Shown here piece after piece: positions 6,802-26,025 of a stretch of 64,000 bases of DNA. The notes under the pieces were generated by a model, which did no database searches, was not told the DNA's origin, and worked only from the letters and a program-made list of their open reading frames with translations. Made by a program: the position numbers and the translations under genes. Origin of the DNA: a virus; IMG/VR virus record IMGVR_UViG_3300029999_000002, positions 25,141 to 89,140 of that record; one strand, written 5' to 3'. Numbering within the stretch: position 1 is the first letter of the stretch; each line of letters opens with the position of its first letter.

Positions 6802-6809
6802 ACAAAAGA

Positions 6810-6832
6810 CCCACCGTGACTATACCGGTGGG
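6810..6832 (+). repeat. hairpin repeat A1
   Basis: CCCACCG-TGACTATAC-CGGTGGG; near-copy at 8799-8821. Confidence 0.7.
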
Positions 6833-6850
6833 CACGCATTGGAGACATAA

Positions 6851-8770
6851 ATGAAGAAGCTGATGACACTGCTGTTTGCAGTCGTGATGTTGTTTGGTGC
6901 ACAGTATGCGCGCGCAACAGGACCCGCTGGGACACTCAATGTCGTGGCTTACAACGTCCTGGATTCAACGGGGACTCCGCTCGTTAGTGGTACTGTGTAC
7001 TTCGCGCCAGTGGATGGCAGTGGTAACCCTTTGTCATACAGGCTGGGCAGCTTGGGGCAGGCAATAAGTTCTCCGGTCTCGGCGCCAATTGTCAATGGAG
7101 CTTTTTCACTCAATCTTCCTAACGTATCGCTCACAAACCCTGTGAACGTTTGCTTCAACACGACAATCATCAATAATAGCAATGGGCAGAGTGTGCTGGG
7201 CGGAGGATATACTTGTGTCCAACCAAATCCCTCATTGGGGTGGTGCAATACAACGACTTGCGACTTTGATAACTATCCCCCAAACGAAGCGGGTATTGGG
7301 ATCGTCTACCCTGCTACTGTTTCAATTGGCACTGTGACGACAGGAACGCCTGGGTCTTCGGCGTCTGCAACAATGAGTGGTACACCTTCAGCAGCTGTCT
7401 TGAATCTCACGTTGCCTCAGGGCATTCAAGGACCGATAGGCGCTCCTACCAGTGGCGTCAATTTGTCTACAACTTCTTTGCAGATGATGCTTGGCCCTTT
7501 GAATAGTGCCGGGTTCAATGGTCTTGTAAATGCTGCTGTGCTGACAGGTTCAGACATCGGTGCAAAGATCAATAGCTTCGGCCCAACCGGAACACTATGG
7601 ATTCCCGAAGGCACTTATAGCTTTTCCACGCCTATCTCCATCACACTCACCAACACGAATAATTTGCATATCATCTGTGCCTCACACAACACTATCCTGA
7701 ATTACACGGGAACGGGTGACGCAGTATATGTAAATGGGCAATTAGCCAATGGACAGTTTCACATGGAGAACTGCCAGCTTAACGGTAACTCCGGTGCAAC
7801 AAACGGTGTCCACTTATTTGACACAGCAAATGCAAGATTAACAAACATGGTGGTTTCAGGATTCACTCTTGGTTCTGGTATATATGGCCAGGGATCTCTG
7901 CTGGGTATGTTTATTGGCAATGGAGTGACGAGCAACAAGTATGGTGTGCGGTTGCAACCCGATACCACTAACAATTATGCAGCCAACCGCAATAGTGTTA
8001 TAGGGGGCTCGCTTGGGTACAACACATCCTTTAATTTTTGGGATGAGGGAAACTCCAGCAACTATGGTGGGGATAGCAGTAATGTCTTGGATGGTGTAAC
8101 GCTAGAAGAGAACGCTAATGTTGTTCAGTTCCTGGTTGAAGGTACATGGAACGATGCTATCGTAAATAGCTATATTGAAAACAATTTTGGCACATCTACA
8201 TCCAGTTTACCCACCGGAATTGTAGGCAACATTGCGAGCAGTGGGTACGGGTCCAATGCAACATACACGGCAGTTGATTTTTCGTTCTCCAATAATTATG
8301 TAACTTCAGTATTAGCCGGGTCAGGGTTTGTCACTGAGACTTTACTTGCGGAGAACACAACTGCATTAACTGTGACAACTATATCTGACACGGGATCTCC
8401 TAGTTACTTTGTAAACTTCAACGCTAGCGGTACTAATTCCTATACATCAATTGGAGTTTCTGAGGACAGTTGGAAAACTGCACCCTACTTGAATTTACCG
8501 ACAGATGCGATAGCTTGGACGTTTCAGCAGACACCAGGGTCTTCAGGGTTTACAGGGTCACCAACAGGATTGATTCTGGGTAGCTTGACAACGACAAAGA
8601 CGGTCTCAAATGCCCTCATCCAGAATGGTGCAGCGCCTACAGTGGGTAGTGGTCAGATTTCTATTGGTGCTACTACAAATGGGGCCGCAGCATGTGGTTC
8701 TATTGTTGGAGCGGCCGGTTGCATTGTTTTCAATCTAGGTGGGGTAACTCACTATTTCCCTTACTGGTAG
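6851..8770 (+). CDS. signal-peptide-bearing tailspike/fibre-like protein with beta-helix (pectin-lyase-like) domain, paralog 1
   Basis: MKKLMTLLFAVVMLFGAQYARA signal peptide; short G-X-Y segment; GTLWIPEGTY and Asn/Gly-rich beta-helix repeats; ends GCIVFNLGGVTHYFPYW. Confidence 0.65.
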   Translation: MKKLMTLLFAVVMLFGAQYARATGPAGTLNVVAYNVLDSTGTPLVSGTVYFAPVDGSGNPLSYRLGSLGQAISSPVSAPIVNGAFSLNLPNVSLTNPVNVCFNTTIINNSNGQSVLGGGYTCVQPNPSLGWCNTTTCDFDNYPPNEAGIGIVYPATVSIGTVTTGTPGSSASATMSGTPSAAVLNLTLPQGIQGPIGAPTSGVNLSTTSLQMMLGPLNSAGFNGLVNAAVLTGSDIGAKINSFGPTGTLWIPEGTYSFSTPISITLTNTNNLHIICASHNTILNYTGTGDAVYVNGQLANGQFHMENCQLNGNSGATNGVHLFDTANARLTNMVVSGFTLGSGIYGQGSLLGMFIGNGVTSNKYGVRLQPDTTNNYAANRNSVIGGSLGYNTSFNFWDEGNSSNYGGDSSNVLDGVTLEENANVVQFLVEGTWNDAIVNSYIENNFGTSTSSLPTGIVGNIASSGYGSNATYTAVDFSFSNNYVTSVLAGSGFVTETLLAENTTALTVTTISDTGSPSYFVNFNASGTNSYTSIGVSEDSWKTAPYLNLPTDAIAWTFQQTPGSSGFTGSPTGLILGSLTTTKTVSNALIQNGAAPTVGSGQISIGATTNGAAACGSIVGAAGCIVFNLGGVTHYFPYW

Positions 8771-8794
8771 TAGCTGTTCTTAGCCTGATCAATC

Positions 8795-8832
8795 AAAGCC
8801 CACTGTGAGTATCCCGGTGGGCTTTTTGTTTT
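8795..8832 (+). terminator. intrinsic terminator (hairpin repeat A2)
   Basis: AAAGCCCACTG-TGAGTATCC-CGGTGGGCTTT followed by TTGTTTT. Confidence 0.75.
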
Positions 8833-8879
8833 AACCACCGCTTATCGCGGAAAAGGGGATCGCCATCACATACCAACCT

Positions 8880-9536
8880 ATGACCATTCCGGACTTCACA
8901 GCGGTCACTGTGTTCAACGGCTGGAACGTGATGCCGATGCCTCTCTATCCCGGCTTCAGAGATGTTGAGTTCACAGTCAATGACACGGTGGCGCAGGTTG
9001 CCAACCCATTCACGCAGCAGAGTCAGTTTCAATCATGGCCCGGTGGTGACTTTTGGGCTGGAACACTCACACTTCCCAAGATGAATCGTGCCTCGGCCGC
9101 TCAGTGGATTGCATTCCTGATGGCAGCACGAGGCTCAGCTAATTGCTTCCTGGTGGGTGACCCTTCCATGAAGAACCCACAGGGATCTCCCACAGGCTCC
9201 ATGGTGGCCAACACGACTGGCTCTAACAACGCAGCCATGACTACTTCCCTGTTCGTCTCTGGCCTCGTAGCGCTATCCACTCGCAACCTCCTGCCTGGAG
9301 ATCAGATTCAGGTTGGTAACAGGCTGCACACATGTTTGAACACGGTGAACGCTGATGCAAGTGGTAATGCCAACATCGGAATTTGGCCAAGCCTCAGAGA
9401 GATTCCAACTAATGGAGAGGCCATTATCACCAACCATCCAAAGGGACTCTTCAGATTGGCGACTAACGCGCGCACATGGAGTGTAGATGAGACTCGTCTG
9501 TTCGGGTTGAGCTTCAAGATTGTAGAGGCCAAATAG
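8880..9536 (+). CDS. distal tail protein-like
   Basis: First conserved tail-tip gene after the TMP region; NPFT.Q.Q..WPG..W pattern; possible ATC start at 8865. Confidence 0.6.
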   Translation: MTIPDFTAVTVFNGWNVMPMPLYPGFRDVEFTVNDTVAQVANPFTQQSQFQSWPGGDFWAGTLTLPKMNRASAAQWIAFLMAARGSANCFLVGDPSMKNPQGSPTGSMVANTTGSNNAAMTTSLFVSGLVALSTRNLLPGDQIQVGNRLHTCLNTVNADASGNANIGIWPSLREIPTNGEAIITNHPKGLFRLATNARTWSVDETRLFGLSFKIVEAK

Positions 9537-9537
9537 C

Positions 9538-10092
9538 ATGTCACGACAACTGGACCCCTCTCTAGCTTCTGCGCTGTCTGATGGCATCATCTATCCCATC
9601 GTTCTTGTGATGCTGACCTTCGCATCAAGTACGAAGTATGTGTGGAGCGGCGTAGGCAATTTTGTCTATAACGGCAACACCTATCTGGGTGTTGGATCTC
9701 TGGGCAGCATCAGCACGATTAGTGAAGGCTCCGAAGTGCAGGCAGATGGAATCAACCTGAAGCTATCAGGTATCGATCCTGTCTTCATGGGCGAGTGCAT
9801 GGCTGACATTCAGCTGGGTGCACCTGCAAAGGTGTGGTTTGCCCTCGTGAGTGAAGGTGCCATTATTGGCTCCCCATATCTCATCTTCAGTGGCAACGTA
9901 GACCAGCCAAAGTTCAACACTTCTGCTGATGAGTGCTCGATAACTCTTTCACTAGAGAACGAGTTGGTGAACCTTCAGAGAGCTAGTCAGCGCAGGTATA
10001 CGAGTGCTGACCAAAGAAATTTTTATCCCAACGACACTGCATTCGGTTGGGTAGAACAGCTAAATGACCAGGCGCTTGTCTGGGGAACCTAG
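9538..10092 (+). CDS. tail tip / hub protein (minor tail protein L-like)
   Basis: VWSGVG...YLGVGSLGSIS and RRYTSADQ...YPND..F motifs; synteny. Confidence 0.65.
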   Translation: MSRQLDPSLASALSDGIIYPIVLVMLTFASSTKYVWSGVGNFVYNGNTYLGVGSLGSISTISEGSEVQADGINLKLSGIDPVFMGECMADIQLGAPAKVWFALVSEGAIIGSPYLIFSGNVDQPKFNTSADECSITLSLENELVNLQRASQRRYTSADQRNFYPNDTAFGWVEQLNDQALVWGT

Positions 10093-10102
10093 AGGAGACA
10101 TC

Positions 10103-10543
10103 GTGGCATTAGTACGCAAAGATCATTGGGCCACGCGCTCCTATCATCAGTTCCTTATAGACAACAAAGACAAGACATTCGAGTGGGGGTCCTGGGACTG
10201 CACAACATTCTGCGCCAATGCAATTGAGGCTATGACAGGTGTCGACATCGCTGATGAAGTTCGTGGAAAGTACACAACCGCTATTGGTGCCATGAAGCTA
10301 ATCAAGTCACTTACTGGTGGAACTACTGTTGCTGATGCGGTTGCATACTGTGCGCAAAAGCATGGCCTTCCAGAACTTGAGAAGCCCAAGTTTGCAAAGC
10401 GTGGGGACGTGGTTGTCATCAAGAATGGTGATGACTTGATTGCAGGCATGGTGCACCTCAATGGCAGGCATGTGATCTGTGTATCTGAGACGGGACTTGT
10501 TCGTCTATCGATTGAAAACGTACAGAGAGCATGGAGTGTATAG
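10103..10543 (+). CDS. NlpC/P60-like tail tip protein
   Basis: FEWGSWDCTTF, AKRGDVV; GTG start after AGGAG. Confidence 0.7.
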   Translation: MALVRKDHWATRSYHQFLIDNKDKTFEWGSWDCTTFCANAIEAMTGVDIADEVRGKYTTAIGAMKLIKSLTGGTTVADAVAYCAQKHGLPELEKPKFAKRGDVVVIKNGDDLIAGMVHLNGRHVICVSETGLVRLSIENVQRAWSV

Positions 10544-10546
10544 GCT

Positions 10547-13447
10547 ATGAGCAAGGCACTTATGTCCGCTGCAATTGGCGCTGCGCTCATCGCAGGCGCA
10601 GCGGCTATCTTCATTGCTACGGGTGGCGTAGCAGCTGTCGCCGCCATCGGACTAGAAGCCACCCTCGGAGCAACATCATCAGTAGTTGTCGGATTGGCTG
10701 TAGCTGGCATCTCGATGGAAGCAGCGTCGATTGCCAATGCTCTGACCACCAATCGTGGTATGAATATCACCACGAGAGCAGCAGCAAGTTACAGACAAGT
10801 CATCTATGGGCAGCAGCGTGTTGGAGGCGTGACTATTTACCGCAGCACAACCGGCTCCCATAAAGATCAGTACAATTATGTCATTGTTATAGCAGGGCAT
10901 GAGATTGATAGCATTCAGAACCTATACCTGGATGGAAGACAAGTCTACTGGGATACGTCTTCGGTTGGTAACAGCACTCGCAACGGTGTGAACTTTGGCG
11001 GTAATGCTGATAGTAATAACCACGAGGGACCCAACGGAGTTCAATACAACTTCGGTTCTGGTAACGGTTATGCTGCTCAGGTCTTCTGTGACGCCTATTA
11101 TGGCGACCAGGCTCCTAACACTGTTGACGGCCACCTCACAGCGAATGACCCTGTATGGGCACCGGATGGTGCTGGTGGGTATCCCTGGGTCGCAGGCTGT
11201 GCCTATGTATACCTCAAGGTAGAGTCAAACGCCACCGAGTTCCCTGGTGAGCCTGAGATCAGATTCACGGTCAACGGTAAGAACAACATTCTTGATCCCC
11301 GCGAGCCGGCTGTTGATGGAATTCCCTACACTGGATTCACCTCTAACTGGGCGCTGATAGCAGCAGACATCATCACTGATCCCATCTTTGGTCTCGGTGA
11401 TCCTACAGTAAATCAGGCTCAACTGATCGCAGCTGCAAATGTCTGCGATGAGCAGGTAGATATTGCTATCGGTGGTACAGAAGCCCGATACCATATTGGA
11501 CACCACTACGACACCTCAACGTCCCCAGGCGATGCCCTGAACTCAATCATGGCCTCGGCCGCTGGGCGCATTAGCCGTATTGGTGGTGAGTGGTACTTGT
11601 GGCCGGCTTATTGGCAGGGACCATCCTTCAGTTTCTCTGATACCAACTTCACGGGCGCTGTTGAGTGGAAGCCATATCGTAGCTATCGGGATCTCATCAA
11701 TCGGGTGAACGGTACTTACACCGCTCCCAACTTCCCCTGGAATGTCACAGGCAATCTCTATGATGCCAATGGCTTCTACAACGGGTTCACGCAGAATAAC
11801 TTCGCGTTTGCCTTCCAGCCAACAAATTATCCCCAGTATGCGGCCGACGTGCTCCATGGGTACGCTTCGGATCAGTACCTGATAGCAGATGGCGGTAAAC
11901 AGCTTCCACTTGAACTCACGCTGAACCCAGTGCTGTCAGTATCACAGGCGCAGAGAATTGCGAAAATCGCGCTACTGAGAAATAGGCAGCAGGGTATGGG
12001 AACCTTCCATCTCAATCTTGCTTGTTGGCAGATGCAGCCTGTTGACGTGTTCCTGTTTGATTACGCTAACTACGGCTGGACGAGCAAGGTGCTTGAAGTT
12101 GGTTCTGTCAAATTCTCCATTTCTTCTGGATCAGATGAGTCGGCGCCCAGTGTGCGCGCCGAGTTTGAGGTTCACGAGACCGCCGAAACGGTTTATGAGT
12201 GGAGCACGGTTGAAGAGCTAACTGTCTATGACGTTGGTGCTACACCGACTCAGTATTCGGGCATTGTTGCACCGCCAACATCGCTCACAGCCGTGTCCTC
12301 AGCAGCAACCGCTCTTGTATCTCCAGATGGCAAGACAGTAACGCCTCGCATTGAGGTCACCTGGGATACCCCGCTGGACACATATGTTTCGCAGATTCAG
12401 ATTCAGTATCAGGTGGCTGAGACTACAGCTTGGCTGGATGGTGGCATCGTGTCCGTGGAGGCAAATCTCGCGTACATTGCCAACATCGTTGCTGGTCAAC
12501 AGTACAACATTCAGATAGCTTCAGTCCGCGCCAATGGCAACACTTCAGCGTGGGTTGGTCCTGTGACAATCACTGCTGGCTTGGTTCTCTCAATTGAGAC
12601 GGTAGCTGGCCTTGATCCTGGGTCTCTGGTTGGAGATGCTTATGATACGGGCTACGGAGCAGTAACCTGCAACCCGTTCACAGCACTGATTGGTCAAGTG
12701 TCTCTGCCAATCCTTCCTGGAGGCGCAGTCACTGTTTCCGTTGATGGAACAAGTGGACTCGCACCGCTAACACCTGTGTCGCAGCAGACCCTGTACTACG
12801 TGTACTACATTGACCTAACGTCGTCCGGTGGAAACATCACGCCAATCGTGACCACGAATCCAGTCGACTTCCTTGGAAAGCTTGGGTACTGGCTGATTGG
12901 AACAGTGACCACTCCCTATGCTGCTGTTACAGGTAGCGGTCCTGGTGGCAGCACTCCTGGGTCTTTGTATCAACCTTCAACCTCTACGAGTGTAGGAACC
13001 AGAACACCAACAAATCCCTCATGGGCATATGACGGTAACACGTCTACTTCTGCAGGGGTTGGTAGTAGTGCTACCAGTATTTATCGTCTTGGTTCTACAA
13101 CTTCATCTTCATCATATGGGAATGTCACCTGGGGTGTATTCCCTAGCTATGTTGCTCCATCAGGGGGAATGACGCTATCGATAAACCTGTCCTCAGTGGC
13201 GTCAGCAACTAACAACCCATTTGGTGCATGGACGTTGACAGCGGTTATCAATGGTGTTTCCTCAACGATAGCCTCTGGTACCAACACAACGCAACAGATA
13301 TTTACGGCCGCAATCGCTGCTGGAGTGAATCTCAACACAATCTCAGTGACGTTGAATGTCGCGCCCGGTACTCCAGTTGCAAGCTCTGGAACAACAGTCG
13401 CAAGTGCGTCAACGAATGTATCTGTGTTCGAGATATATGCACAGTAA
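10547..13447 (+). CDS. tail tip attachment / central fibre protein (J-like) with FN3 domain
   Basis: RQVIYGQQRVGG, AANVCDEQV, FN3-like VTWDTP...YNIQIASV. Confidence 0.8.
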   Translation: MSKALMSAAIGAALIAGAAAIFIATGGVAAVAAIGLEATLGATSSVVVGLAVAGISMEAASIANALTTNRGMNITTRAAASYRQVIYGQQRVGGVTIYRSTTGSHKDQYNYVIVIAGHEIDSIQNLYLDGRQVYWDTSSVGNSTRNGVNFGGNADSNNHEGPNGVQYNFGSGNGYAAQVFCDAYYGDQAPNTVDGHLTANDPVWAPDGAGGYPWVAGCAYVYLKVESNATEFPGEPEIRFTVNGKNNILDPREPAVDGIPYTGFTSNWALIAADIITDPIFGLGDPTVNQAQLIAAANVCDEQVDIAIGGTEARYHIGHHYDTSTSPGDALNSIMASAAGRISRIGGEWYLWPAYWQGPSFSFSDTNFTGAVEWKPYRSYRDLINRVNGTYTAPNFPWNVTGNLYDANGFYNGFTQNNFAFAFQPTNYPQYAADVLHGYASDQYLIADGGKQLPLELTLNPVLSVSQAQRIAKIALLRNRQQGMGTFHLNLACWQMQPVDVFLFDYANYGWTSKVLEVGSVKFSISSGSDESAPSVRAEFEVHETAETVYEWSTVEELTVYDVGATPTQYSGIVAPPTSLTAVSSAATALVSPDGKTVTPRIEVTWDTPLDTYVSQIQIQYQVAETTAWLDGGIVSVEANLAYIANIVAGQQYNIQIASVRANGNTSAWVGPVTITAGLVLSIETVAGLDPGSLVGDAYDTGYGAVTCNPFTALIGQVSLPILPGGAVTVSVDGTSGLAPLTPVSQQTLYYVYYIDLTSSGGNITPIVTTNPVDFLGKLGYWLIGTVTTPYAAVTGSGPGGSTPGSLYQPSTSTSVGTRTPTNPSWAYDGNTSTSAGVGSSATSIYRLGSTTSSSSYGNVTWGVFPSYVAPSGGMTLSINLSSVASATNNPFGAWTLTAVINGVSSTIASGTNTTQQIFTAAIAAGVNLNTISVTLNVAPGTPVASSGTTVASASTNVSVFEIYAQ

Positions 13448-13468
13448 CCAGTAGTCCGCAAAGAGGAA

Positions 13469-14023
13469 TTGATGAACTATCTTCAGATAATCCAATATCT
13501 CTACCCTTCATCTGTCCAGGGTGCGGACTACTACTTCTCTCTCATGCTTGATGGTGTCACTCCGATTCTCACGAATTGGAACACCACCAAGCTGGGAGTG
13601 CAGCCAACTGCTGCCACCCTGCAAGCAGCTTGGGCCGCAACGCAACTAAACTTGGCTCAGCAGCAGCAGCTTTTACTGTTGCAGTCCTGTGCAGCGGCAG
13701 CAATTACAAGCGGGTTCACATCCTCTGCGTTAGGCAGTCCGCACACATATCCATCACAGACAACAGATCAGTTGAACTTGACTGCTTCAATAGTGGCTTC
13801 GATGATCCCAGCTGTAGAGACTGGCTATACCACTCTCTTCTACTGCGCTATCGGCAGCCCTCTCGTGTGGTCATTCACTTCACACACAGCAGCACAGATT
13901 CAGCAGGTTGGCATCGACGCCAAAGCGTGGATTCAATCTCAGCAAGCAATACATGCAACACTCGCTGCCCAAGTAGCAGCAGCAACCACAGTCGCGACCG
14001 TCCAAGCAATTGTTTGGCAGTAG
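13469..14023 (+). CDS. tail fibre assembly-like protein (XkdW/DUF4376-like)
   Basis: WN..KLG.QPT N-terminus; GFTSSALGSPHTYPS..TDQLNL and HTAAQI motifs. Confidence 0.6.
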   Translation: MMNYLQIIQYLYPSSVQGADYYFSLMLDGVTPILTNWNTTKLGVQPTAATLQAAWAATQLNLAQQQQLLLLQSCAAAAITSGFTSSALGSPHTYPSQTTDQLNLTASIVASMIPAVETGYTTLFYCAIGSPLVWSFTSHTAAQIQQVGIDAKAWIQSQQAIHATLAAQVAAATTVATVQAIVWQ

Positions 14024-14082
14024 TAGTTCAGGCCCTCTAACACAGCAATGCAGTCTGTTACTGCGTGGGGAGAAACCATGTC

Positions 14083-14439
14083 ATGGTCCCAGTAGATGTA
14101 GTTTTAGGAATAGCAGCCGCACTTGGTGGTATAGGAACATTCGTATTTGGTGGGGGTATGTTTCGCCAGATGTTTTCCCATAGCAACAAGATGGCAATTC
14201 AGTCGCACCGACAAGATCAGACTGAAGTGTTAGTCAAAGATAACAACAACTCCATTATCTCTCTTCAGATGACTGTGGCTTTGCAGAACCAAAACATGGA
14301 AGGCTTCCAGCGCCAGTTAATCAAGCTAGACCTTATTCCAGACATTAGCGCAAAGCTGAACAGTTTTGGCCAAGTCATGGATGATGTCAAAGACCAACTC
14401 AGAGAGCTTCGCGAAGATCGCATTAGAGACAGAGAGTAA
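14083..14439 (+). CDS. single-TM coiled-coil protein (possible holin/antiholin)
   Basis: N-terminal hydrophobic segment, coiled-coil, charged C-terminus. Confidence 0.35.
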   Translation: MVPVDVVLGIAAALGGIGTFVFGGGMFRQMFSHSNKMAIQSHRQDQTEVLVKDNNNSIISLQMTVALQNQNMEGFQRQLIKLDLIPDISAKLNSFGQVMDDVKDQLRELREDRIRDRE

Positions 14440-14463
14440 GAGACAACACCGGAGATCCACATA

Positions 14464-15483
14464 ATGAGTTCTAACACTCGGACGGACCTCGCAACTCGCG
14501 AGTCCGTCATGGCAGAGGTGCGCGCCGGCATAAGCAACAGGCAGGTTGCCAGCAATCATGGAATTGATGAAGCAACCGTTCGTAGGATTCGCGCAGCATC
14601 TTTGCCGAAGCCTACCACGAATGTTGAGTACCTTGACAAGAAGATTGGTGGGTTCAACTGGCGTGATGCAATCGCTCCTATCCAGGAGATGCAGAAGCTC
14701 CACCGTGAAGCCTCTTGGTCCCAGCAGACTGCGACAATTCGTGTTGGCACTGGCCCTGGTCCCATTGGCATCCTTGTTTGGGGTGATCAGCATGTCGGCG
14801 CCAGAGGCACTGAGTATGACACGTTTGTCCAACTGACCGATCTCTTGCTTGAGACTCCAAACTTGTACGCGATGCTAACGGGTGATGTTGCAGAGTGGGC
14901 AGTCAAGCTTCGAGGTGTTGCTGAAGTCTGCGCACAACTCCTTGATCCTTCTCTCCAGCTTCAGTTCATTGAGTCGTGGTTTGACGAGATCAAGCACAAG
15001 GTCATTGCCAGTACCTGGGGCAATCACACTGATGACAGATCAGAAGCCGGAATCGGTGTATGTCCTCTCAAAAACATTATTGCCAAGCACGTTCCTTATT
15101 TCAGTGGCATCGGCCACATGGAATTGCTGGTTGGAGAGCAGTCATACAAGATTGCGTGCTCCCACAAGTTCTCTGGTGTGACAGCCCTTGACTCTACGGC
15201 GGGTGCGAAGAAATATCTAAGAATGGAAGCCCCAAGCTTTGATGCTGCCATTCAAGGGGACTGTCATCGTGCTGGTGTCTCGATGTACAACGAAGGACCC
15301 AGCCACCGTATTGCTATTACCAATGGTACACACCATCTGCACAGCGGCTTCGCTGCACGTTATTTCTCTATCGCTACGAGTGACTGTATGCCTGTTCTAG
15401 CGTTGTGGCCAGATACGAAGCGCATGGTTGGCTTCTTCAATGTGGATCAGTTCACAGCAACGATAGGTGGTAAGAGTGTCTAA
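14464..15483 (+). CDS. calcineurin-like metallophosphoesterase with N-terminal HTH
   Basis: GDQH, TGD, GNH, SH and GDCH motifs; SNRQVASNHGIDEATVRR HTH. Confidence 0.8.
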   Translation: MSSNTRTDLATRESVMAEVRAGISNRQVASNHGIDEATVRRIRAASLPKPTTNVEYLDKKIGGFNWRDAIAPIQEMQKLHREASWSQQTATIRVGTGPGPIGILVWGDQHVGARGTEYDTFVQLTDLLLETPNLYAMLTGDVAEWAVKLRGVAEVCAQLLDPSLQLQFIESWFDEIKHKVIASTWGNHTDDRSEAGIGVCPLKNIIAKHVPYFSGIGHMELLVGEQSYKIACSHKFSGVTALDSTAGAKKYLRMEAPSFDAAIQGDCHRAGVSMYNEGPSHRIAITNGTHHLHSGFAARYFSIATSDCMPVLALWPDTKRMVGFFNVDQFTATIGGKSV

Positions 15484-16096: not shown

Positions 16097-16347
16097 TAGA
16101 GACAGCCCTAGCCGCCTTGGTTGGCGTCTTCGCTGCACAGTCCCTGAACGCAGCAGTGTCTGCAATGTCCAAGCCGAAGCGGGACGACGGAGCTTATGCC
16201 TACTGGTTTAAGTTTTTGCATGCCGAGGCATCCATAGTTACTTCTCTGATCGAGAAGAAGGTAGATGGACTTGATGTGCAGACAAACACGTTCGTAAAAA
16301 CTGAGACCGCGATTACACCGGCCTCCTCAACAGACCCAAAAAGCTAA
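16090..16347 (+). CDS. small membrane protein (possible holin)
   Basis: Hydrophobic N-terminus; late operon. Confidence 0.35.
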   Translation: MVIETALAALVGVFAAQSLNAAVSAMSKPKRDDGAYAYWFKFLHAEASIVTSLIEKKVDGLDVQTNTFVKTETAITPASSTDPKS

Positions 16348-16361
16348 CAAGGAGTAACACT

Positions 16362-16775
16362 ATGAGTTTGATCACTGATTTGAAGTCGTTCGCATCGAAG
16401 GTAGAAGTTGCTTTCAAGAAGCTCTTCGGTGATGCGCCCGAGTGGATCACTATTGCACAGGGTGTGCTCACCTACCTGGGACCGGTCGTTGTCACGATCC
16501 TGACCATTGGTGGTGGCGTGGCTCTGGGCACGGAAGCGAACACCATCATCGCTGGTATCAAGTCCGATCTGGCTACTGCCATGGCAACTGTGACTACGGT
16601 CAACGCTGCTTCCAGCCTGCCTGCATTGCTGACTGGTATTCAGGCTCAGTTGCCTGCGCTCTTGGCTGCGGTCAAGGTCAGCAACCCGACGAAGGCTGCT
16701 GAGATCGAGAACTACACGAGCATCATCTCGACGGAGCTCACGGCTGTTGTCAATGCCATTCCTTCTGTTGCCTAA
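16362..16775 (+). CDS. hypothetical Ala-rich protein
   Basis: ORF with AAGGAG RBS and phage-like codon use. Confidence 0.6.
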   Translation: MSLITDLKSFASKVEVAFKKLFGDAPEWITIAQGVLTYLGPVVVTILTIGGGVALGTEANTIIAGIKSDLATAMATVTTVNAASSLPALLTGIQAQLPALLAAVKVSNPTKAAEIENYTSIISTELTAVVNAIPSVA

Positions 16776-16797
16776 GAACTATCCAAGTAATTCCTCA

Positions 16798-16821
16798 GGG
16801 GCGCGCTAGTACAGGCGCCCC
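16798..16821 (+). repeat. hairpin repeat B1
   Basis: GGGGCGC-GCTAGTACAG-GCGCCCC; copies at 21163 and 24486. Confidence 0.75.
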
Positions 16822-16848
16822 GACATTTTGTAACAGATAAGGACCCTC

Positions 16849-19800
16849 ATGAACCGTTTGTTTAAAGCAGTTCTCGCCCTCGTGTGTCTGTTTGGCCTGG
16901 GCCAAATGGCGAGTGCGCAGACCACCACCGTCACGGCTGCACATTTGAAAATGGGTGGCTACCTTATTTCTACAGGACAGGTTGACATTACACCTGTTAA
17001 TTTGCAGGGTGTTCCCATTGCTTTCGCTGATGCCACTGGTGCCCAGAACGGACCCACGGCGTATTCTTGCCAAGTTGTAGCCGGCGTGATCACTGGCGCC
17101 ATCGGTGAAACCGGAACTGTTAGCGGAACCTGCGTCGTACCCGATGCGTCCCTCACGACTCCTGCCAACATCCTGTACCAGATTCAGGTTCTGGATCAGT
17201 CCACTGGGCAGCGCACCTCTGGCTTGGCTTACACCATGCAGGCTGTTGTAGGTGTCACAGGCTCTACCTGGGCTCTGGATCACTATGGTCCCCCGGCTCA
17301 GACTTCTGCTGTAAGCTCGCTTCAGGCTACTCAGGGCTCTACCTTGCCCACGTCCTGCGTCTCGCCCTCGGTGTTTACCTACTACAACACAGGTGGTTCA
17401 TTTCTTGGCTTCTATACCTGCGTGGGTGGCGTTGAAGTTGCCATCACTACAGGCAGCACAGGTCCAACTGGTCCTGCTGGACCTACAGGTCCCGCTGGTA
17501 CGGCTGGTGCAACGGGTCCCACGGGAGCAACAGGTCCAACTGGCCCAACTGGATCAACGGGTGCCACTGGTCCTACAGGCTCAACCGGCTCCGCTGGCGC
17601 TGCTGCCACCATCGCTGTTGGCACTGTGACCGCGCTGTCTCCTGGTGCAACGCCTACCGTTGTCAATGCAGGCACATCGAGTGCGGCCACTTTCAACTTT
17701 GGTATCCCTAGCACTTCTAGCTTGACTCTGGCCAACATTGGGGCAGGGGCAGCAGGCGCTGGTCTGTTTGACTTCTCCGCTGCGACCGCGCTGAAGGTTC
17801 CTATTCATGCAGGTGCAACAGCTGCCGCTGCTGGTGAGTTGATCTATGACTCGACCAACGGCAACCTACACACGAATGTTGTTGGCACTGATTTGATCCT
17901 TGCTGGATTCCCTTCTGCGTCCCTGCCTACAACCGGCCATTGCGCTCAGTTCACTGAAATTGGCGCCTGGTGGGAGATCACGGATGCTGGGGCGGCTTGC
18001 GGTAGTGGCTCTGGTGGTGCGCCCTATCCGTCTGGTTCTGGTATTCCAGTTGTCGCTGGTGGTGCATCGTGGGGAACCACCGTAGCTGCCCCCGCTGGAG
18101 CCATCGTTGGTACCACTGATACCCAGATGCTGACCAACAAGACGGTCGATGGTGTAACTCCTGCGACCTTGGCGTTCATGGATGCCACGAGCAGCGTTCA
18201 GACTCAATTGAATGCGCGCACGTCTAGCACAAAGGCTAAGTATGTATCTACCGTCACCGGTGTAACATCATACCCGTACACAAATTGTGCACCTGGAGCT
18301 TCAGCAACTGGGTTGACAGACAGTTGGTCTGTGATAAACGCTTATGCTGCCACTGCTGGCCAGCGATTGGAGTTTGACGGCTGTTTTGCGTTGAGCCAAG
18401 CACTAACTCCCAACTCTTCCACCACCCTCCATGGCGCATTTGGTGGCGCGGGCGTCATTATGCTCACGGGTGCCAACACTCCAGCCATCCAGAACCTCCA
18501 TCAGGCCGGACCCACCACCGCCAGCGGCACGGGAGGGTATGCCGTTTCTAACATCACGGACACCAACATCAGCGTGTCTGACATGATGATCAACTGCAAC
18601 TCAACGCAATCCGTCACCGGCAGCGGCAACGGCCAGAGCGTAGCACACACTACCAACAGTTCAAACGTGTGGATCTTCTGTGAACAGTACCTTGGCGTTA
18701 GCGGTCTGTTCCACGATCACAACTACGTCTACGACGCAGGCACATATAGTGTCATGTACTCCAACGTGGAGCATGCTTGGTTTGGTCATGACCAATTGAT
18801 CCAACCCACACCGTTGGTGCTGAAAAAGAACACGGACGGACTGCATTGCACCGGGCCATGCACGGACATTCACATCAGTGATGAGCGGATTCTAGCTGGC
18901 GACGACGCTATGGCCATCAACTGTAATGACGGCAACCAAACAGACCCCGGAGCCTACCCGACCGGCTTCAAGTTCGGCCCGTGCCTGGGCTTCTATATCA
19001 ACAACGTCAACATAGACGGTAGCTTGTCCGGCCCGCTCATCTATAGCAGCACTGAGCTAGCAGACGACATCCACATGAATAACATCGGCGGGACAGTCCT
19101 CGGTAACGGTCTAGAGATTGCACCGTTCACCACCGGCCCGGGTAACGTTGGCAGTGTCTATATCAGCGGCTACAGTTCGCAGTCCAACGGTTCACAGAAC
19201 CCTTGGTCGCAACCGTATCCCTTCCTCATCACGGCCAACTACAAGCTTATCGAGCTTGGCATCCAGTACAAGAACCCCGCAGCCGCCGTTGCGACGTGGC
19301 CGATTCTTACCCATAACGTCGCGACCCCGGGCATCCTGTCGTTGCGGAACTGGGACGTGAACACCTCCACCACGACCCTAACCGTCCCTTTGATTGACAT
19401 AACGGGTGGAGGCGCTCCGCAGGTCTCTATCAGTGGCCTGAACTGGCAGGATGTCATCACGGGCGGGACCGCTACCGTGTTCGGCGGCTCGACCGTACCG
19501 GCCACGCTCAACTGCTCCAACTACAACGGTCCGAACCGTCTGCTCGCGTCTGGGTTCGCTCCAGCCCAGCAAAACGGCGACTGCTTCACCAACACCTATC
19601 CCTCTACCCACACCATCGGTTTGATTCCCGCGATGACGGGTGGAAACACCACGATAGCTGCAGACCAGGTAACCCTTTTGGGAACTCCCTTCCCGGTGTC
19701 GGGAACACTGTCCTCGATTAGCTTCCAATATGGAGCTGCACCCGGCAGCACTACTCCCATAACGATAGCAATCTTCAGCGGTACGCTGCCTAACCTAACC

Positions 19801-20064
19801 GTTGTCAACAGCTTCACCGTCACTCCAGCAAATGTAGCGACAGTGCAAACGATGACAGGTGGCGGTGTCAACTTCCCAACGACAGCTATCACAGCAGGGG
19901 AGTATATCGGATACTGGGGAACAACCGTAACGCCAGGCTTCGGTGTGGCTTCGGGGTATAACATCTACTACTCACCGTCACACACAACCCTGCCCACCGG
20001 CTCGGTCGCGTATACGCTGCTAGGCGGGGATGCGATTGCTTTGACTGCAACCACAACTCCCTAA
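16849..20064 (+). CDS. signal-peptide-bearing fibre-like protein with collagen-like repeat and GH28-like beta-helix, paralog 2
   Basis: [23 protein letters not shown]|Q signal peptide; (GPT/GAT)n at about 17450-17600; NTDGLH...GDDAMAI resembles the polygalacturonase (GH28) NTDG/GDD motifs. Confidence 0.7.
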
Positions 20065-21101
20065 GAGCTATACCAAACCGCAGTACGTTCAATGGACTCA
20101 GCCAGAGAATAATGCTGGCTGAGTCCAAGTTCGTGTTGCACCCGCTGCGTTGCTGGAACATAGCGCGTGGGTGCAACACCTTCCTTTGGATGTTGAGCAA
20201 TGCTGATTGGCAAAGAGGGGTTGAGGGTGTCTGCTGTAAGGCGTGCCAACTCAGCGATGCTGATTGCCTCATCTGAACCCACGTTGAATGGGCGAAGAGT
20301 AGGAGCTTTGAAAAGAATAGTCCACAACCAAACTGCGAGATCAGCCGCGTAGAGATATGAACGTAATGGTGTGCCATCCCCACCGATCTGAATTGGTGAT
20401 CCTTTGATAGCATCTCGAATGAAGTTTCCAACAGCAAAGTTGCTGTCAAGAGGCAGATTGGGACCTACGAAGGCAAAGCAGCGCGCAATCTTGAACTCAA
20501 TAGATGATTGCTTTGCGTACAGTGCGCACATCAGTTCTGATGCCCTTTTCCCTTCACCATAAGCAGAATTTGGGGAAAGCACATCCGGCGCACCGAGGAA
20601 TTCTTCTGAAACGTTGCTGAGATCAGTTGGTTGTACACCATAGACAGCACCCGAGCTAGTGAGAAGAAACTTCTTAGTTGCATGGGTGGCTGCAAACTCT
20701 AACATATGTGCAGTGCCCTCTGTGATAGCAGTGTATCGCTCAATAGGATTGCTATTTTTAGTGATTGTAGAAACCTCTGTTGCAGCGTGGATAACAAATT
20801 CAAATTCACCTGGAGGTATCTGGAACGACCTTATATCTCCAGAGACCATAGTTACGGATGGATCACTAGCAAGATGAGGTGATTGTGTTCTAAAACGTTC
20901 TGGGTAACGTGTGAGTACAGATACCTCAGCGTGTAAAGTCAACTTTTTGTTGATATGCAGGAATGTTGAGAGTAGCCATGTGCCGAAGAATCCAGTACCA
21001 CCTGTGATGAAGAGTCTCTTATTCCTAAGCTCATCCCACAGTGGGCGGGTCTGCTCAAGCACAAAGTTTAGGTCATCAGTTGCAAAGGGCTTGTTAGTCA
21101 T
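20061..21101 (-). CDS. NAD-dependent nucleotide-sugar epimerase/dehydratase (extended SDR)
   Basis: [35 protein letters not shown]. Confidence 0.9.
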
Positions 21102-21162
21102 AGTTATTCCTCACTGCGCCCACCATACAGCATTAGAAACAATTTGTCACAACCTGAACCCA

Positions 21163-21200
21163 AGAGGGACGTGCTTGTATAGGCGTCCCTCTTTTCTTGT
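21163..21200 (+). terminator. hairpin repeat B2 / intrinsic terminator
   Basis: AGAGGGACGT-GCTTGTATAG-GCGTCCCTCT then TTTCTT. Confidence 0.65.
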
Positions 21201-21225
21201 ATGACACCAGATAAGGACACAACTC

Positions 21226-24200
21226 ATGAAATTTTTGTATCGATTCGCCCTTGCCCTTGTATGTCTGTTCGGCCTGGGACAAGTTGCAAGCGCGCAATCT
21301 ACAACTGTTACAGCATCACAAATCAAGATCAGTGGGTTTCTCATCCCAACAGGACTGGTGACCTTTGCCCCAGTTGACATCAACGGCGCACCCATCTCGT
21401 TTGCAGACGGTACCGGCGCCCAGAACGGTCCTAAGGCCATCGCGTGCCAGATCGTCAACGGTGCCATCACTGGAGCCCTCACTGAATCCGGGTCCGTTAG
21501 CGGATCGTGCGTAGTCCCCGACTCCTCGCTGACCACTCCTCAAAACATTATGTACCAGATTCAGGTCACCGATCAGTCCACAGGACTGAGAACAAGTGGC
21601 ATTAGCTACACACTGCACACGGTTGTTGGCGTGTCTGGATCAACCTGGGCGCTAGACCATTATGGCCCCCCTGCTCAGACGACCAACGTGAGCCCTCTTG
21701 AGTCCAGTGTGGGCACCGTGCTTCCCAGCCCCTGCGTGGTGCCGTCCGTATTCACCTTGATGGCTTCAGGTGTGCTCTCAGGCTTCTACACATGTGTTGG
21801 TGGTACAGAAGTTCTCATCACTAATGGAACTGGTAGCGGCTCGGTAGGCCCTATGGGACCGACCGGACCTACTGGTGCAACCGGCGCTGCTGGATCAAAT
21901 GGTGCAGCCGGCCCCAACATTGTTACCACGTCGACCTCAACCACGATCACAGGATTGCTAAAGGGTAATGGCAGCAATGTGGGTCTTGCGGTTGCAGGTA
22001 CTGATTACATGCTGCCCACCAGCAACATCACAGGCACGGCCGCAGGCTTGAGTGCAGCTTCTGCTCTACCTAATGGCACCACGGTCACAACGCAGTCAAC
22101 AAGTGACACAAGTGGACAGGCTGCTTCTGATGAGTTCGTAGCTGCTGCCATTACAGCCTCAGGTGGTGCTGCTCCCGGAGCCTATCTTCAGACAGGTGCA
22201 AGTGGCAGTCAGACCATGGTGATCCCAGCTGCTGGCGGTCTTTTCGAAACGGAGACAAACAACACTCTAGCTTCTATGGTCATGCACAAACTGACGCTGC
22301 TCAATGTGGGTCAAGGATACGATCTCGGCAGCCCTTGGAGCACGCATAACACGCTGACTCTCAACGAACTCAACACTGTTCGCGGCAACAACCAGATGAT
22401 CCCAATCACGTTCAACAATTGGGCCGTGGGTGATGCGGATGGTTTGTATATTGCCATGCTGAACTTTGGTGGTAAGAAGTTTGCCAGCGACGAGGGTGTA
22501 AATACACAGACTTTGCAGATGCATCAGGCACCTGAGATTTATGGGCCACTAGCCACACCACAAGCAGGCAATCTGTTTGGGGCATTCGGTGCGCTAGTTG
22601 CTGGTAATACATTCATTTCTATTGGTGCTGTGTTCCCGGTCACGGGTCAAGTGCAGACTGTGAGCATCCCGTTCCCAAGTGGTTCCACTGCGCAGACAGC
22701 TTATGTCGGTGTTGGAACTTTGGGTACAGCAAACAGCATCACAATCACTCAAGTTGTTCCCATCAGCATCCCTACGACGGTCGGAAACAACACCCAGGTT
22801 TACACTGCTGGGTCCACACTTCCTACCTTGTTAGCTTCAGGTGGGCAGGTGCTGCTCTATTTCCAAGCTACGGGTGAGGGTCCATCTGGCACCTCTGTTT
22901 CTCCAAACTGTCTTCCTGCATCTGGAGTTCCGACTGTTGGAACCTACACGATGTCAACCACGAATGCTGCCTGCAACATCGGTGGCTATTATGGTGGCCT
23001 TGTTATTGAAGCAACCCAAGCTGCACCCACAGTTGGTGCAACGACCATCTGGATCAATCCTGTTAGCTACTATGGCTATCTGGACTACAATCTGAGCCCG
23101 CCAATGTTCTCAGATGATCAGATCGTCTATGACACAGCTTCAGTTGCAACGGGTACCATTGGTTCGCAGTCGACGCTGGAAGGTCTTGCTACTGGGTTCA
23201 CTCTTAGTTCAGGAACGGTTCCAGTTTCTACCGCGTTTGGGTTCCTGTCTGCTTGCTCTGGTTCGGGCAATGGTCAGACTCAGGTTGCAGCACTGGTGAC
23301 CTGCACGGTTACACCCTCTACCTCACCAGCGAGCGGTGCGTTCGTTGCACCCATCACGCTGACAGGTTCGACAACCAGTGGCAGCACGACGGTACCAGTA
23401 TCTTCCACCACTGGCATGATTGTTGGGCAGATGTTGATTGGAACAGGAATCCCGGCTTGGGACACGATTGCTTCCATTGGGTCTGGTTCAGTAGTCATGA
23501 CCACGGCCGCAACTGCGACCAACAGCACTGAAGCAATGCACATCAGGACCACTGTGGCTATCTCCGGATACTTCGGTGAGACCGCTGCGATGTCAACTGT
23601 CACAGCTTTGTCTGGTGGAACGCAGACCATTGCATTCTATTCGACGTATCCCCCCGTTGCTCACGATGGCGAGTTCATTGGACAGGGTGGTATGGCTGGT
23701 ACCGGCATGACAATTGCGAACACAGGCTGGGCTCCTATGTGGCAGATCATTGCTTCTATATCCAGCACTCAGTTCATTCTCAGCAACTGCGTCACTGGAG
23801 GCTGCTTCACTACCGGTTACCTTCCTGCTGCTACCAATAGTGCTTACTTCTATCCGATGAGCTATGTGAATGGCACCAACGGAGGAATCTCCGGATCGGC
23901 AAATCTGTTAGCAAATGATATGCCTGACAATCCAGGTGATGGCATCGAAGGTGCGCCGTCAACTGAGTATTCAGGCAACATCACCTTTGAGGTGTTTGGG
24001 CAGAATACCCCAATTGATTACTCGCAACCAAGCGGCATGCACTACATGTTGCATGATGGCCCGATTGGTCCTGCTTACGAGTGGGACATTCAGGAGAATG
24101 GCAGCCTGTTCACAAACACCATGATGTTGAACGGTGTTCACTACGGGTCTGTGTTCAGCTTCTCTCACTATCCGACCACTTGCTTTGCATGTTGGAGCAG

Positions 24201-24462
24201 TCAGTCTTCGGGTGCAGTCTTCACTCTGTTCGGTGTCTACAACGTGGGCAACTTCAGTGTTGATTACAGCGGGTTCCACTTCAACACGCCTCTGAGCTCT
24301 AACAACATTGTGTTCAGTGCTGCTGCTCCCACGACCACTACGGGACAGGTTGGCTTTGGATCAACAGTCGTTGCATCTAGCTTCTGCGGATCACTGAGTG
24401 GAGCAATTGGATGCACTGTGATTAACGTCGCAGGAACTGCCCATTATCAACCATACTGGTAG
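21226..24462 (+). CDS. signal-peptide-bearing fibre-like protein, paralog 3
   Basis: [23 protein letters not shown]|Q; first ~200 aa clearly homologous to 16849; G-X-Y segment; C-terminus GCTVINVAGTAHYQPYW homologous to 6851. Confidence 0.7.
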   Translation: MKFLYRFALALVCLFGLGQVASAQSTTVTASQIKISGFLIPTGLVTFAPVDINGAPISFADGTGAQNGPKAIACQIVNGAITGALTESGSVSGSCVVPDSSLTTPQNIMYQIQVTDQSTGLRTSGISYTLHTVVGVSGSTWALDHYGPPAQTTNVSPLESSVGTVLPSPCVVPSVFTLMASGVLSGFYTCVGGTEVLITNGTGSGSVGPMGPTGPTGATGAAGSNGAAGPNIVTTSTSTTITGLLKGNGSNVGLAVAGTDYMLPTSNITGTAAGLSAASALPNGTTVTTQSTSDTSGQAASDEFVAAAITASGGAAPGAYLQTGASGSQTMVIPAAGGLFETETNNTLASMVMHKLTLLNVGQGYDLGSPWSTHNTLTLNELNTVRGNNQMIPITFNNWAVGDADGLYIAMLNFGGKKFASDEGVNTQTLQMHQAPEIYGPLATPQAGNLFGAFGALVAGNTFISIGAVFPVTGQVQTVSIPFPSGSTAQTAYVGVGTLGTANSITITQVVPISIPTTVGNNTQVYTAGSTLPTLLASGGQVLLYFQATGEGPSGTSVSPNCLPASGVPTVGTYTMSTTNAACNIGGYYGGLVIEATQAAPTVGATTIWINPVSYYGYLDYNLSPPMFSDDQIVYDTASVATGTIGSQSTLEGLATGFTLSSGTVPVSTAFGFLSACSGSGNGQTQVAALVTCTVTPSTSPASGAFVAPITLTGSTTSGSTTVPVSSTTGMIVGQMLIGTGIPAWDTIASIGSGSVVMTTAATATNSTEAMHIRTTVAISGYFGETAAMSTVTALSGGTQTIAFYSTYPPVAHDGEFIGQGGMAGTGMTIANTGWAPMWQIIASISSTQFILSNCVTGGCFTTGYLPAATNSAYFYPMSYVNGTNGGISGSANLLANDMPDNPGDGIEGAPSTEYSGNITFEVFGQNTPIDYSQPSGMHYMLHDGPIGPAYEWDIQENGSLFTNTMMLNGVHYGSVFSFSHYPTTCFACWSSQSSGAVFTLFGVYNVGNFSVDYSGFHFNTPLSSNNIVFSAAAPTTTTGQVGFGSTVVASSFCGSLSGAIGCTVINVAGTAHYQPYW

Positions 24463-24485
24463 CTTATATAAATCAACTTCATACC

Positions 24486-24520
24486 GAGGGGCGCGCTTGT
24501 ACAGGTGCCCCTCTTTTCTT
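24486..24520 (+). terminator. hairpin repeat B3 / intrinsic terminator
   Basis: GAGGGGCGC-GCTTGTACAG-GTGCCCCTC then TTTTCTT. Confidence 0.65.
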
Positions 24521-24640
24521 GTTTATCGAGGTCTCATGGCAACGATCACCGCAGCACAGGTTGGCTCGATGTGTTAGAGAAGCTACAACATTGTTCAACT
24601 TGTCGCGAACCCAGTATTACCGAATCAAAAGAGGCGAGCA

Positions 24641-25878: not shown

Positions 25879-25892
25879 TTGAAAACAAACCT

Positions 25893-25932
25893 GCTCCCCA
25901 GTTGCCCTAACAGGCGCTGGGGAGCTTTTGTG
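25893..25932 (+). terminator. intrinsic terminator ending the late operon
   Basis: GCTCCCCAG...CTGGGGAGC then TTTTGTGTTT. Confidence 0.8.
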
Positions 25933-25939
25933 TTTAAGT

Positions 25940-25988: not shown

Positions 25989-26025
25989 GAATGGGCGATA
26001 CAAAGCTTCAAGGAGAACCACCAGA

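Follow-up and report, generated by a model that had tools for sequence, protein, structure and literature searches.

Predicted Sec signal peptides on three tail-fibre-like proteins of a siphophage with Terriglobales prophage relatives

Described fibre systems and the three genes

The textbook view is that tailed phages are assembled entirely in the cytoplasm, and to our knowledge neither the side fibre Stf of lambda nor the beta-helix tailspikes Dettilon gp208, LKA1 gp49, APK09 gp48 and K2-2 TSP, nor ORF18 of Geobacillus virus E2, carries a signal peptide. The analysis presented here concerns a 64,000-nucleotide stretch of viral DNA (the window, bases 25141–89140 of the 89,140-base IMG/VR record IMGVR_UViG_3300029999_000002, whose CheckV completeness is 81%), in which three genes for proteins resembling tail fibres or tailspikes, P0001, P0002 and P0003 (Table 1), begin with what appear to be Sec signal peptides. 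Comparative evidence makes it very probable that these fibres are exported, cleaved and disulfide-bonded. The complete reading, in which the three proteins are tail fibres or tailspikes of a temperate siphophage with Terriglobales prophage relatives and are first exported and then mounted on the virion, is given a probability of roughly 0.4. In a literature search that covered main-text passages, no report of Sec signal peptides on the tail fibres of a tailed phage was found.

In Ur-lambda, according to the available text of PMC12617516, Stf residues 1–94 are a collar domain present in twelve copies around the junction between the tail tube (gpV) and gpM, and the attachment is peripheral and late, at the junction of tube and distal tail protein (Dit). 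The present genes resemble stf in lying downstream of the central fibre gene, in occupying tail modules near the central fibre or Dit genes, and in encoding a small N-terminal beta-sandwich followed by a long trimeric fibre. They differ in that these proteins have a cleavable-looking leader and four Cys in the N-terminal domain and in that sequence similarity to Stf was not found; the leader, which all three proteins and 142 of 147 relatives have, sets them apart from the cytoplasmic, leaderless lambda-type side fibres.

The MAT fibres of Bdellovibrio bacteriovorus, as described in the available text of Caulton et al. (2024; PMC10769870), have a signal peptide, a conserved beta-rich N-terminal domain of ~130 amino acids (aa) that is proposed to bind an envelope component, a phage-like trimeric fibre, and variable C-terminal tips, one of which contains a disulfide. 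The succession of signal peptide, beta-rich N-terminal domain and fibre is the same in the present proteins, the N-terminal domains being likened by layout alone. In contrast, MATs are chromosomal and displayed on the surface of the predator, whereas the present genes lie in phage tail modules, and the S74 domain has no match in the three proteins in Pfam searches. An N-terminal anchor followed by an enzymatic body is the usual tailspike plan, and the P0001 body matches the four tailspikes named above and E2 ORF18 with expect values (E) of 1.6e-5 to 2e-3, with only ~170 body residues confidently modelled. The fold of the N-terminal domain also matches minor tail proteins of Arthrobacter, Gordonia and Streptomyces phages (E 2.4e-5 to 9.4e-4, probability 0.99–1.0), although the TM-scores are low (0.35–0.46) and the hosts of those phages are Actinobacteria.

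Signal peptides are described on phage proteins of other kinds. Porphyromonas phage genes of unknown function have signal peptides, some of which obey the Q-rule, and are read as envelope modifiers (Matrishin et al., 2023; PMC10367356); in the available text of that paper the term "tail fiber" does not occur. The Q-rule is described, in the text available of the two papers concerned, as specific to Bacteroidetes (Bochtler et al., 2018, PMC5837995; PMC10367356). Those phages and the present one share Sec signal peptides that would expose an N-terminal Gln, and differ in that the hosts here are Acidobacteriota. A 2026 survey that excludes tail fibres reports, in its available text, signal peptides on 5% of prophage carbohydrate-active enzymes (PMC13507307). 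Set against these systems, the three proteins combine parts of known kinds: a beta-helix tailspike body, stalk pieces of collagen-like and beta-sandwich type, and an Stf-like anchor. What is new is the predicted Sec leader, which is conserved, and the Cys linked to it.

Predicted leaders and paired cysteines

The three open reading frames (ORFs) are present as the initial annotation, made from the letters of the window alone, had given them, and each ATG is preceded by GGAG or AAGGA at a distance of 6–9 nucleotides. The basic, hydrophobic, AxA-type leaders that it had described on them are confirmed: in each, two Lys or Arg residues precede an uncharged hydrophobic region whose best 12-residue window has a mean Kyte-Doolittle hydropathy of 2.5–2.8, and an AxA site follows. 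All three leaders have the basic n-region, hydrophobic h-region and small residues at −1 and −3 expected of Sec substrates of signal peptidase I, as judged, like all leader calls and leader and cysteine tallies given here, by rule-based scripts together with comparative evidence. The leader of P0001 is MKKLMTLLFAVVMLFGAQYARA, and its mature protein would start with TGPAG. A loose leader rule flags 13 of the 141 greedy ORFs of the genome, among which, on reading, only the three fibres and one lipobox protein have Sec-like leaders. Between the closest paralogues, P0002 and P0003, leader codons 9–23 show a single amino-acid change against seven differences that are only synonymous, which indicates that the leader is translated and under selection. 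The J-like central fibre of this phage begins (10547–10660) with a long hydrophobic stretch rich in Gly and Ala, MSKALMSAAIGAALIAGAAAIFIATGGVAAVAAIGL, that is also present in its homologues in three related loci (L004, L006, L017); it does not look like a cleaved signal peptide.

The N-terminal domain with paired Cys that the initial annotation regarded as common to the three proteins is borne out by pairwise alignment. The domains of P0002 and P0003 are 65% identical over 216 aa (E 4e-82), those of P0001 and P0003 are 30% identical over 175 aa (E 9e-10) with the DNYPP and DHYGPP motifs aligned, those of P0001 and P0002 match with E 4e-8, and each contains four Cys. A full HMMER search with P0003 residues 1–202 against 1.84 billion representatives recovers at least 226 clusters at E ≤ 0.001, 107 of them at E ≤ 1e-10, with the domain at the protein N-terminus in every match, indicating that the candidate exported-fibre system is not confined to this phage. 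Of the other searches, tblastn of P0003 against GenBank phages gives no match, the J-like protein has only distant matches among the same phages, a sequence search of the PDB returns nothing but collagen-like repeats, and ESM Atlas scores for residues 1–205 (0.83–0.89) are leads only.

The family was examined as a set of 156 proteins, comprising the three of the window and 153 relatives that, as cluster representatives, are not independent samples. Nine of them lack the N-terminus; a leader is present in 142 of the other 147, and the remaining five are complete proteins without one. The leader rule is passed by 140 of the 156, and two further leaders were recognized on inspection, one of them in a shortened gene call whose longer frame is seen in locus L025. 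A small-x-small/Q site (the slash marks the predicted cut) immediately precedes the conserved TT(V/I)TA with which the domain starts in 136 of 141 leader-bearing proteins, a count that includes P0001 at an alternative site, its canonical site being ARA/T; Ala occupies −1 in 116 of the 141. Leaders vary in sequence and in length (11–57 residues, median 23), and the residues that follow the site are conserved. The five leaderless proteins, together with those of loci L016 and L017, start 2–5 residues before the cleavage point with Gly in place of Gln. Because leaderless relatives start at the predicted cleavage site and a variable leader precedes conserved residues, the leader is, to judge from these alignments, a discrete module whose boundary coincides with that site. 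Leaders of the same type occur in 10 of 11 fetched relatives of P0001, including proteins that share just the beta-helix body and have other N-terminal domains.

Cysteine content follows the leader. Mature P0001, P0002 and P0003 contain 8, 16 and 14 Cys in close pairs, and among the other tail proteins of this phage the tape measure protein (TMP) and the major tail protein contain none and the J-like protein five. Leader-bearing N-terminal domains have an even number of Cys in 120 of 131 cases (17 with two, 85 with four and 18 with six), and the five leaderless domains contain 0, 1, 1, 1 and 2, with one each in those of L016 and L017. On a quick FastTree of 143 N-terminal domains, seven of them leaderless, the leader state changes at least 2–3 times, and the nearest leader-bearing neighbours of leaderless proteins have four Cys at conserved places; the independent contrasts between leader and Cys number two, both in the direction of the leader and not significant (p 0.5). 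The pattern is that expected if the leader delivers the protein to an oxidising compartment. The part of the earlier proposal that has the fibres exported and disulfide-folded is supported by these observations, namely the near-universal leader, the leaderless starts at the site and the Cys pairs that track the leader. A Gln at +1, placed as under the Q-rule, is found family-wide in these phages of Acidobacteriota (in the window at 16915–16920 and 21292–21297), and by eye two of three leader-bearing host genes at locus L026 also have Gln at +1.

Tail context, N-terminal fold and bodies

Related loci number 24, of which 16 are viral contigs and eight are genome loci, and their ORFs were compared with the window proteins by blastp. 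The genome loci are from two complete Tunturiibacter chromosomes, two Edaphobacter metagenome-assembled genomes (MAGs), a Terriglobales MAG, Terriglobus albidus, an unclassified MAG and a Rhodanobacteraceae MAG. Since these fall mostly in Terriglobales (Acidobacteriota), the hosts are probably mainly of that order, an assignment made from prophage relatives and not from this phage itself. Tail genes adjoin the N-terminal-domain gene in 18 of the 24 loci. In 15 of these the leader-bearing gene follows the TMP, Dit, L-like, phrog_2134 and J-like genes, in that order. A J protein of lambda type is recognised by PHROG in L024 (phrog_31, E 2e-102), the gene order of which recurs in its sister L025, and in L015 another tail-tip protein is encoded directly upstream. 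L005 and L006 have a second leader-bearing gene between TMP and Dit, as in the window. In the other six loci no recognisable tail genes were found nearby. A tandem pair of leader-bearing N-terminal-domain genes lies at 10001–12005 of the viral contig L019. At 9902–11481 of L026 (Terriglobus albidus), a frameshift-split copy is surrounded by chromosomal genes that encode secreted proteins; phage genes were not recognised in its vicinity, and it is probably a remnant.

The leader is present in 21 of the 24 locus genes. Two of the three leaderless genes occupy the same slots as leader-bearing ones, in L017 between TMP and Dit and in L015 after the J-type protein, and a leaderless protein in such a slot is most simply an ordinary virion fibre. 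Because leaderless orthologues fill the same tail-module slots, the gene order argues that the N-terminal domain is a tail-docking domain.

P0003 residues 24–202 were modelled by AlphaFold2 with a 41-row alignment, giving two all-beta units with a predicted local distance difference test score (pLDDT) of 95.1. Foldseek of this model against the PDB gives no match at E ≤ 0.001, the best being the tail fibre of cyanophage A-1(L) at E 0.018; against BFVD there are nine matches at E ≤ 0.001, including the N-terminal regions of tail fibre and minor tail proteins from actinophages. In a VIA-align search over 48,161 chains, the top four matches are all collar or anchor pieces of phage virions: the A-1(L) neck fibre (Z 7.5), the Bxb1 tail tip (Z 7.0), chain Ta of the Ur-lambda tail tip (PDB 9e7m; Z 6.8, root mean square deviation 2.9, 90 of 94 residues aligned) and the XM1 neck (Z 6.3). 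From its length and the available text of PMC12617516, we infer that chain Ta is the Stf collar domain. The modelled likeness to Stf is to be read beside generic beta-sandwiches, which reach Z 6.1, and likeness to collar and anchor domains in general falls in the Z range that VIA-align calls common, a lead and not a proof. A complex prediction of the N-terminal domain with the major tail protein and Dit (score 0.00, mark 0.32) counts neither way.

The bodies beyond this domain are unrelated to each other, as the initial annotation had held and pairwise comparison confirms. Its proposed G-X-Y linker stands for P0002 (PF01391, 32.4 bits against a cut-off of 27.2), is weak in P0003 (13.8 bits), and does not extend to P0001, which has only about three such triplets and does not match PF01391. 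Of the GH28-like features, the NTDG and GDD strings are present in P0002, but assignment to GH28 (PF00295) was rejected: the match covers just 35 residues and scores 13.9 bits, below the cut-off of 22.9. The model of P0001 has a mean pLDDT of 64.9; it is good in the N-terminal domain and in a beta-helix of ~170 residues but poor in the rest. Model residues 200–370, where the pLDDT is mostly 80–98, form a parallel beta-helix. Foldseek of this body returns 19 PDB matches at E ≤ 0.001, including beta-helix enzymes and tailspikes, and the helix matches Geobacillus virus E2 ORF18, an alginate epimerase, a rhamnogalacturonase, RbmB and several tailspikes. The short motif of P0001 residues 155–198 also occurs in ordinary fibres of unrelated phages, mostly leaderless by eye. 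The C-terminal module ascribed to P0001 and P0003 is real, with 46% identity over 54 residues (E 6e-12). Among all sequences fetched it is found in these two only, a region search among 5.8 billion proteins (lengths 592–1887 aa) returned P0003 alone, and its model is poor (pLDDT below 50).

Table 1. Features of the three fibre genes, the surrounding tail and lysis region, and related loci (window positions unless a locus is named; a slash marks predicted cleavage).
Feature	Position	Strand	Basis or remark
Neck1	472	+	PHROG
Tail terminator	903	+	PHROG
Major tail protein	1387-1875	+	PHROG; followed by two chaperone-like genes
Tape measure protein (TMP)	3484-6801	+	PHROG
P0001, signal-peptide fibre/tailspike gene, 639 aa	6851..8770	+	Between TMP and Dit genes
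P0001 leader, 22 aa, predicted cleavage ARA/TGPAG	6851..6916	+	Homologues P0160-P0164 have leaders at the equivalent place
P0001 N-terminal domain, ~residues 23-150, Cys 101, 122, 132, 137	6917..7300	+	pLDDT ~77-95 over model residues 1-120
P0001 residues 155-198, short beta-rich fibre motif	7313..7444	+	Sequence matches
P0001 right-handed beta-helix body, confident part ~residues 222-392	7514..8026	+	Model and Foldseek
P0001 C-terminal module, residues 586-639, Cys 615 and 624, ends HYFPYW	8606..8767	+	Alignment with P0003
Distal tail protein Dit	8880-9536	+	PHROG
L-like tail protein	9538	+	PHROG
phrog_2134 gene	10064	+	PHROG
J-like central fibre	10547-13447	+	PHROG
Small protein with XkdW and DUF4376 domains, without leader	13469-14023	+	Directly after J-like gene
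P0002, signal-peptide fibre gene, 1071 aa	16849..20064	+	Outside core tail operon
P0002 leader, 23 aa, predicted cleavage ASA/QTTTV	16849..16917	+	Sequence rule
P0002 N-terminal domain, residues 24-200, Cys 74, 95, 170, 191	16918..17448	+	Alignment
P0002 collagen-like G-X-Y repeats, residues 202-251	17452..17601	+	PF01391, above cut-off
P0002 residues 660-694, NTDG and GDD strings	18826..18930	+	Weak GH28 match, below cut-off
Nucleotide-sugar epimerase	20061-21101	-	Between P0002 and P0003 genes
P0003, signal-peptide fibre gene, 1078 aa	21226..24462	+	Upstream of endolysin gene
P0003 leader, 23 aa, predicted cleavage ASA/QSTTV	21226..21294	+	Sequence rule
P0003 N-terminal domain, residues 24-202, Cys 74, 95, 170, 190	21295..21831	+	All-beta model, pLDDT 95.1
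P0003 short G-X-Y stretch, residues 205-229	21838..21912	+	PF01391, below cut-off
P0003 C-terminal module, residues 1025-1078, Cys 1054 and 1063, ends HYQPYW	24298..24459	+	Alignment with P0001
Endolysin	24641		3' of P0003 gene
Extra leader-bearing genes in relatives	L007 12190-14907; L008 12211-12981; L011 12270-13061; L020 12295-12909; L023 12362-13117		

PHROG searches of the window proteins identify a siphovirus tail module on the plus strand. A gene for a GIY-YIG homing endonuclease (2729–3499) is inserted between the tail chaperone genes and the TMP gene, and in L005 a relative of it separates the L-like gene from phrog_2134. Downstream of the tail module are non-structural genes, for an exonuclease and a deoxynucleoside monophosphate (dNMP) kinase, and then the P0002 gene, 3.4 kb past the J-like gene; the P0003 gene is 7.8 kb past it. 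Because the record encodes a tyrosine integrase (30504–31004, G000:C1:55644-56144; PF00589, 37.1 bits, in a 390-aa open frame), the phage is probably temperate. The record turns up repeatedly in peat metagenomes; contigs of four other peat runs compared with 6000–25999 represent the same phage at low depth and in short pieces, and their joints and loose ends are concentrated in the collagen-like repeats and look like assembly breaks.

Hairpins rich in G+C with a similar loop, GCT(T/A)GTA(C/T)AGG, occur at 16798–16821, 21164–21192 and 24486–24513, the latter two followed by TTTTCTTG. Each lies 22–33 nucleotides 5' of a start codon: for the first two hairpins these are the starts at 16849 and 21226, and for the third it is an ATG, at 24537, that precedes the endolysin. 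This gap has scarcely space for a promoter, and therefore read-through or antitermination control of the P0002 and P0003 genes together with the lysis genes would fit. A moron of the lambda Lom or Bor type would have its own promoter and terminator and be expressed from the prophage; here hairpins flank P0002 and P0003, and a promoter is not established by a sigma-70 scan: in 16000–25200, sigma-70 promoter and terminator matches are no more numerous than in shuffled sequence. No RNA runs covering 16000–25500 are listed. A 146-aa ORF at 27326–27766, 2.2 kb past the endolysin, has a lipoprotein-type leader (LTAGC lipobox) and no Pfam match, and may encode an o-spanin or a superinfection-exclusion lipoprotein.

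Proposed mounting on the virion and alternative readings

In the proposed sequence of events, each protein would be synthesized with a Sec-type signal peptide that can be cleaved and would cross unfolded into the periplasm, where signal peptidase I would cut at the AxA site, exposing an N-terminal Gln in P0002 and P0003. Trimerisation would take place in the periplasm, with oxidation of the paired Cys to disulfides, which in P0003 are predicted to link residues 74–95 and 170–190. The conserved N-terminal beta-sandwich would act like the collar domain of lambda Stf, docking on tails built in the cytoplasm after the holin breaches the inner membrane, or in the lysate; earlier, the enzymatic bodies may act on the surface polysaccharide of the infected cell itself.

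Late loading onto virions, at lysis, is the least certain of these steps and is favoured at rather less than even odds, because of the gene slots, the leaderless orthologues found there, the collar-like fold, and the shared anchor with swapped bodies. The last of these is the plan of multi-fibre phages. Joining after the holin has opened the membrane is mechanically conceivable, since collar-type attachment is peripheral and lambda without Stf is viable.

Several points weigh against mounting. We know of no tailed phage that mounts exported fibres, and fibres and tails would be in mismatched compartments until lysis. The P0002 and P0003 genes lie outside the core tail operon, adjoining genes for the dNMP kinase, the epimerase and lysis, and the presence of an integrase makes prophage expression possible. 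The collar Z scores of 6.3–7.5 are middling and scarcely above those of transthyretin-like sandwiches, pilins and adhesins (up to Z 6.1). No DsbA (PF01323) or signal peptidase (PF10502) was found in the 89-kb record, which is 81% complete. In addition, prophage-type relatives have extra leader-bearing genes, without the N-terminal domain, 3' of the fibre gene (Table 1); by eye, those of L008 and L020 precede an endolysin-like gene, and the extra protein of L023 has a Laminin_G_3 (ConA-like lectin/glucanase) domain. An extended version of export followed by mounting is somewhat less likely: it posits a two-compartment virion across a siphophage clade of Acidobacteria with outliers in other phyla, in which periplasmic, disulfide-locked fibres with Gln (probably pyroglutamate) N-termini would clip on in the manner of Stf when the holin opens, polysaccharide having been stripped from within beforehand.

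The initial annotation had left virion loading and secretion or display side by side, and the evidence divides accordingly, with the tail slots, the leaderless orthologues and the fold on the side of the virion and the position of the P0002 and P0003 genes and the integrase on the other. That the proteins are exported but never join the virion, acting as free or cell-surface-displayed depolymerases or adhesins whose N-terminal domain binds an envelope component, is a serious possibility that nonetheless falls short of an even chance. Their role might then be to strip the polysaccharide of their own cell (for receptor destruction, superinfection exclusion or progeny release), or lysogenic conversion. 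The signal peptide and disulfide evidence fits this alternative equally well, and the architecture parallels that of the MAT fibres in the available description (PMC10769870). Free or displayed proteins are also in keeping with P0002 and P0003 genes that are separate from the tail operon, are each preceded by a hairpin and lie near the epimerase and lysis genes, with the encoded integrase, with the additional leader-bearing lectin-like proteins beside fibres in relatives, with fold matches of the N-terminal domain to pilins and adhesins at Z 5–6, and with the 5% of prophage carbohydrate-active enzymes that have signal peptides in the available text of PMC13507307. However, the leaderless orthologues in the same tail slots would have no way to the envelope until lysis, the genes of P0001 and its relatives are placed within the TMP–Dit operon, and the best fold matches are virion collar domains and minor tail proteins. 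A conserved anchor and stalk in three paralogues would be needless for a free enzyme, and a route across the outer membrane is not evident. Mounting on the virion and secretion or display are not mutually exclusive.

It is improbable that the leader is an uncleaved membrane tether, or a segment for assembly or trimerisation, on fibres that remain cytoplasmic and are assembled as usual. Cleavage of the leader is a prediction only, and a hydrophobic N-terminus rich in Gly and Ala is likewise found on the J-like protein of this phage, but the n-h-c layout with small-x-small sites (136/141), the variability of the leader ahead of conserved residues, and the leaderless relatives that start at the site all speak against such a segment, and the even Cys numbers that accompany the leader fit an oxidising compartment. 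True starts downstream of the hydrophobic segment, which the initial annotation had named among the observations that would undo its proposal, were rejected as a very remote prospect, since an in-frame ATG at codon 20 of P0002 is outweighed by ribosome sites 5' of the first ATGs, by Val at codon 20 of P0003, by leader differences between P0002 and P0003 that are almost all synonymous, and by conservation of the leader across the family (142/147).

Only a demonstration of the mounting step would make the assembly route categorically new, and the question is open to bench tests because two cultured strains with complete genomes, Tunturiibacter gelidiferens M8UP28 (locus L020) and T. psychrotolerans X4BP1 (locus L022), contain related prophages. 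If export followed by mounting is correct, these phages have a late step of virion assembly outside the cytoplasm; otherwise, soil phages may routinely secrete fibre-shaped enzymes. Either outcome would bear on the production of such fibres in folded form and on whether the "carbohydrate-active" genes of viruses in soil metagenomes should be taken for auxiliary metabolism or for host recognition. It would also bear on how phages of slime-rich bacteria of acid soils handle thick polysaccharide and harsh conditions.

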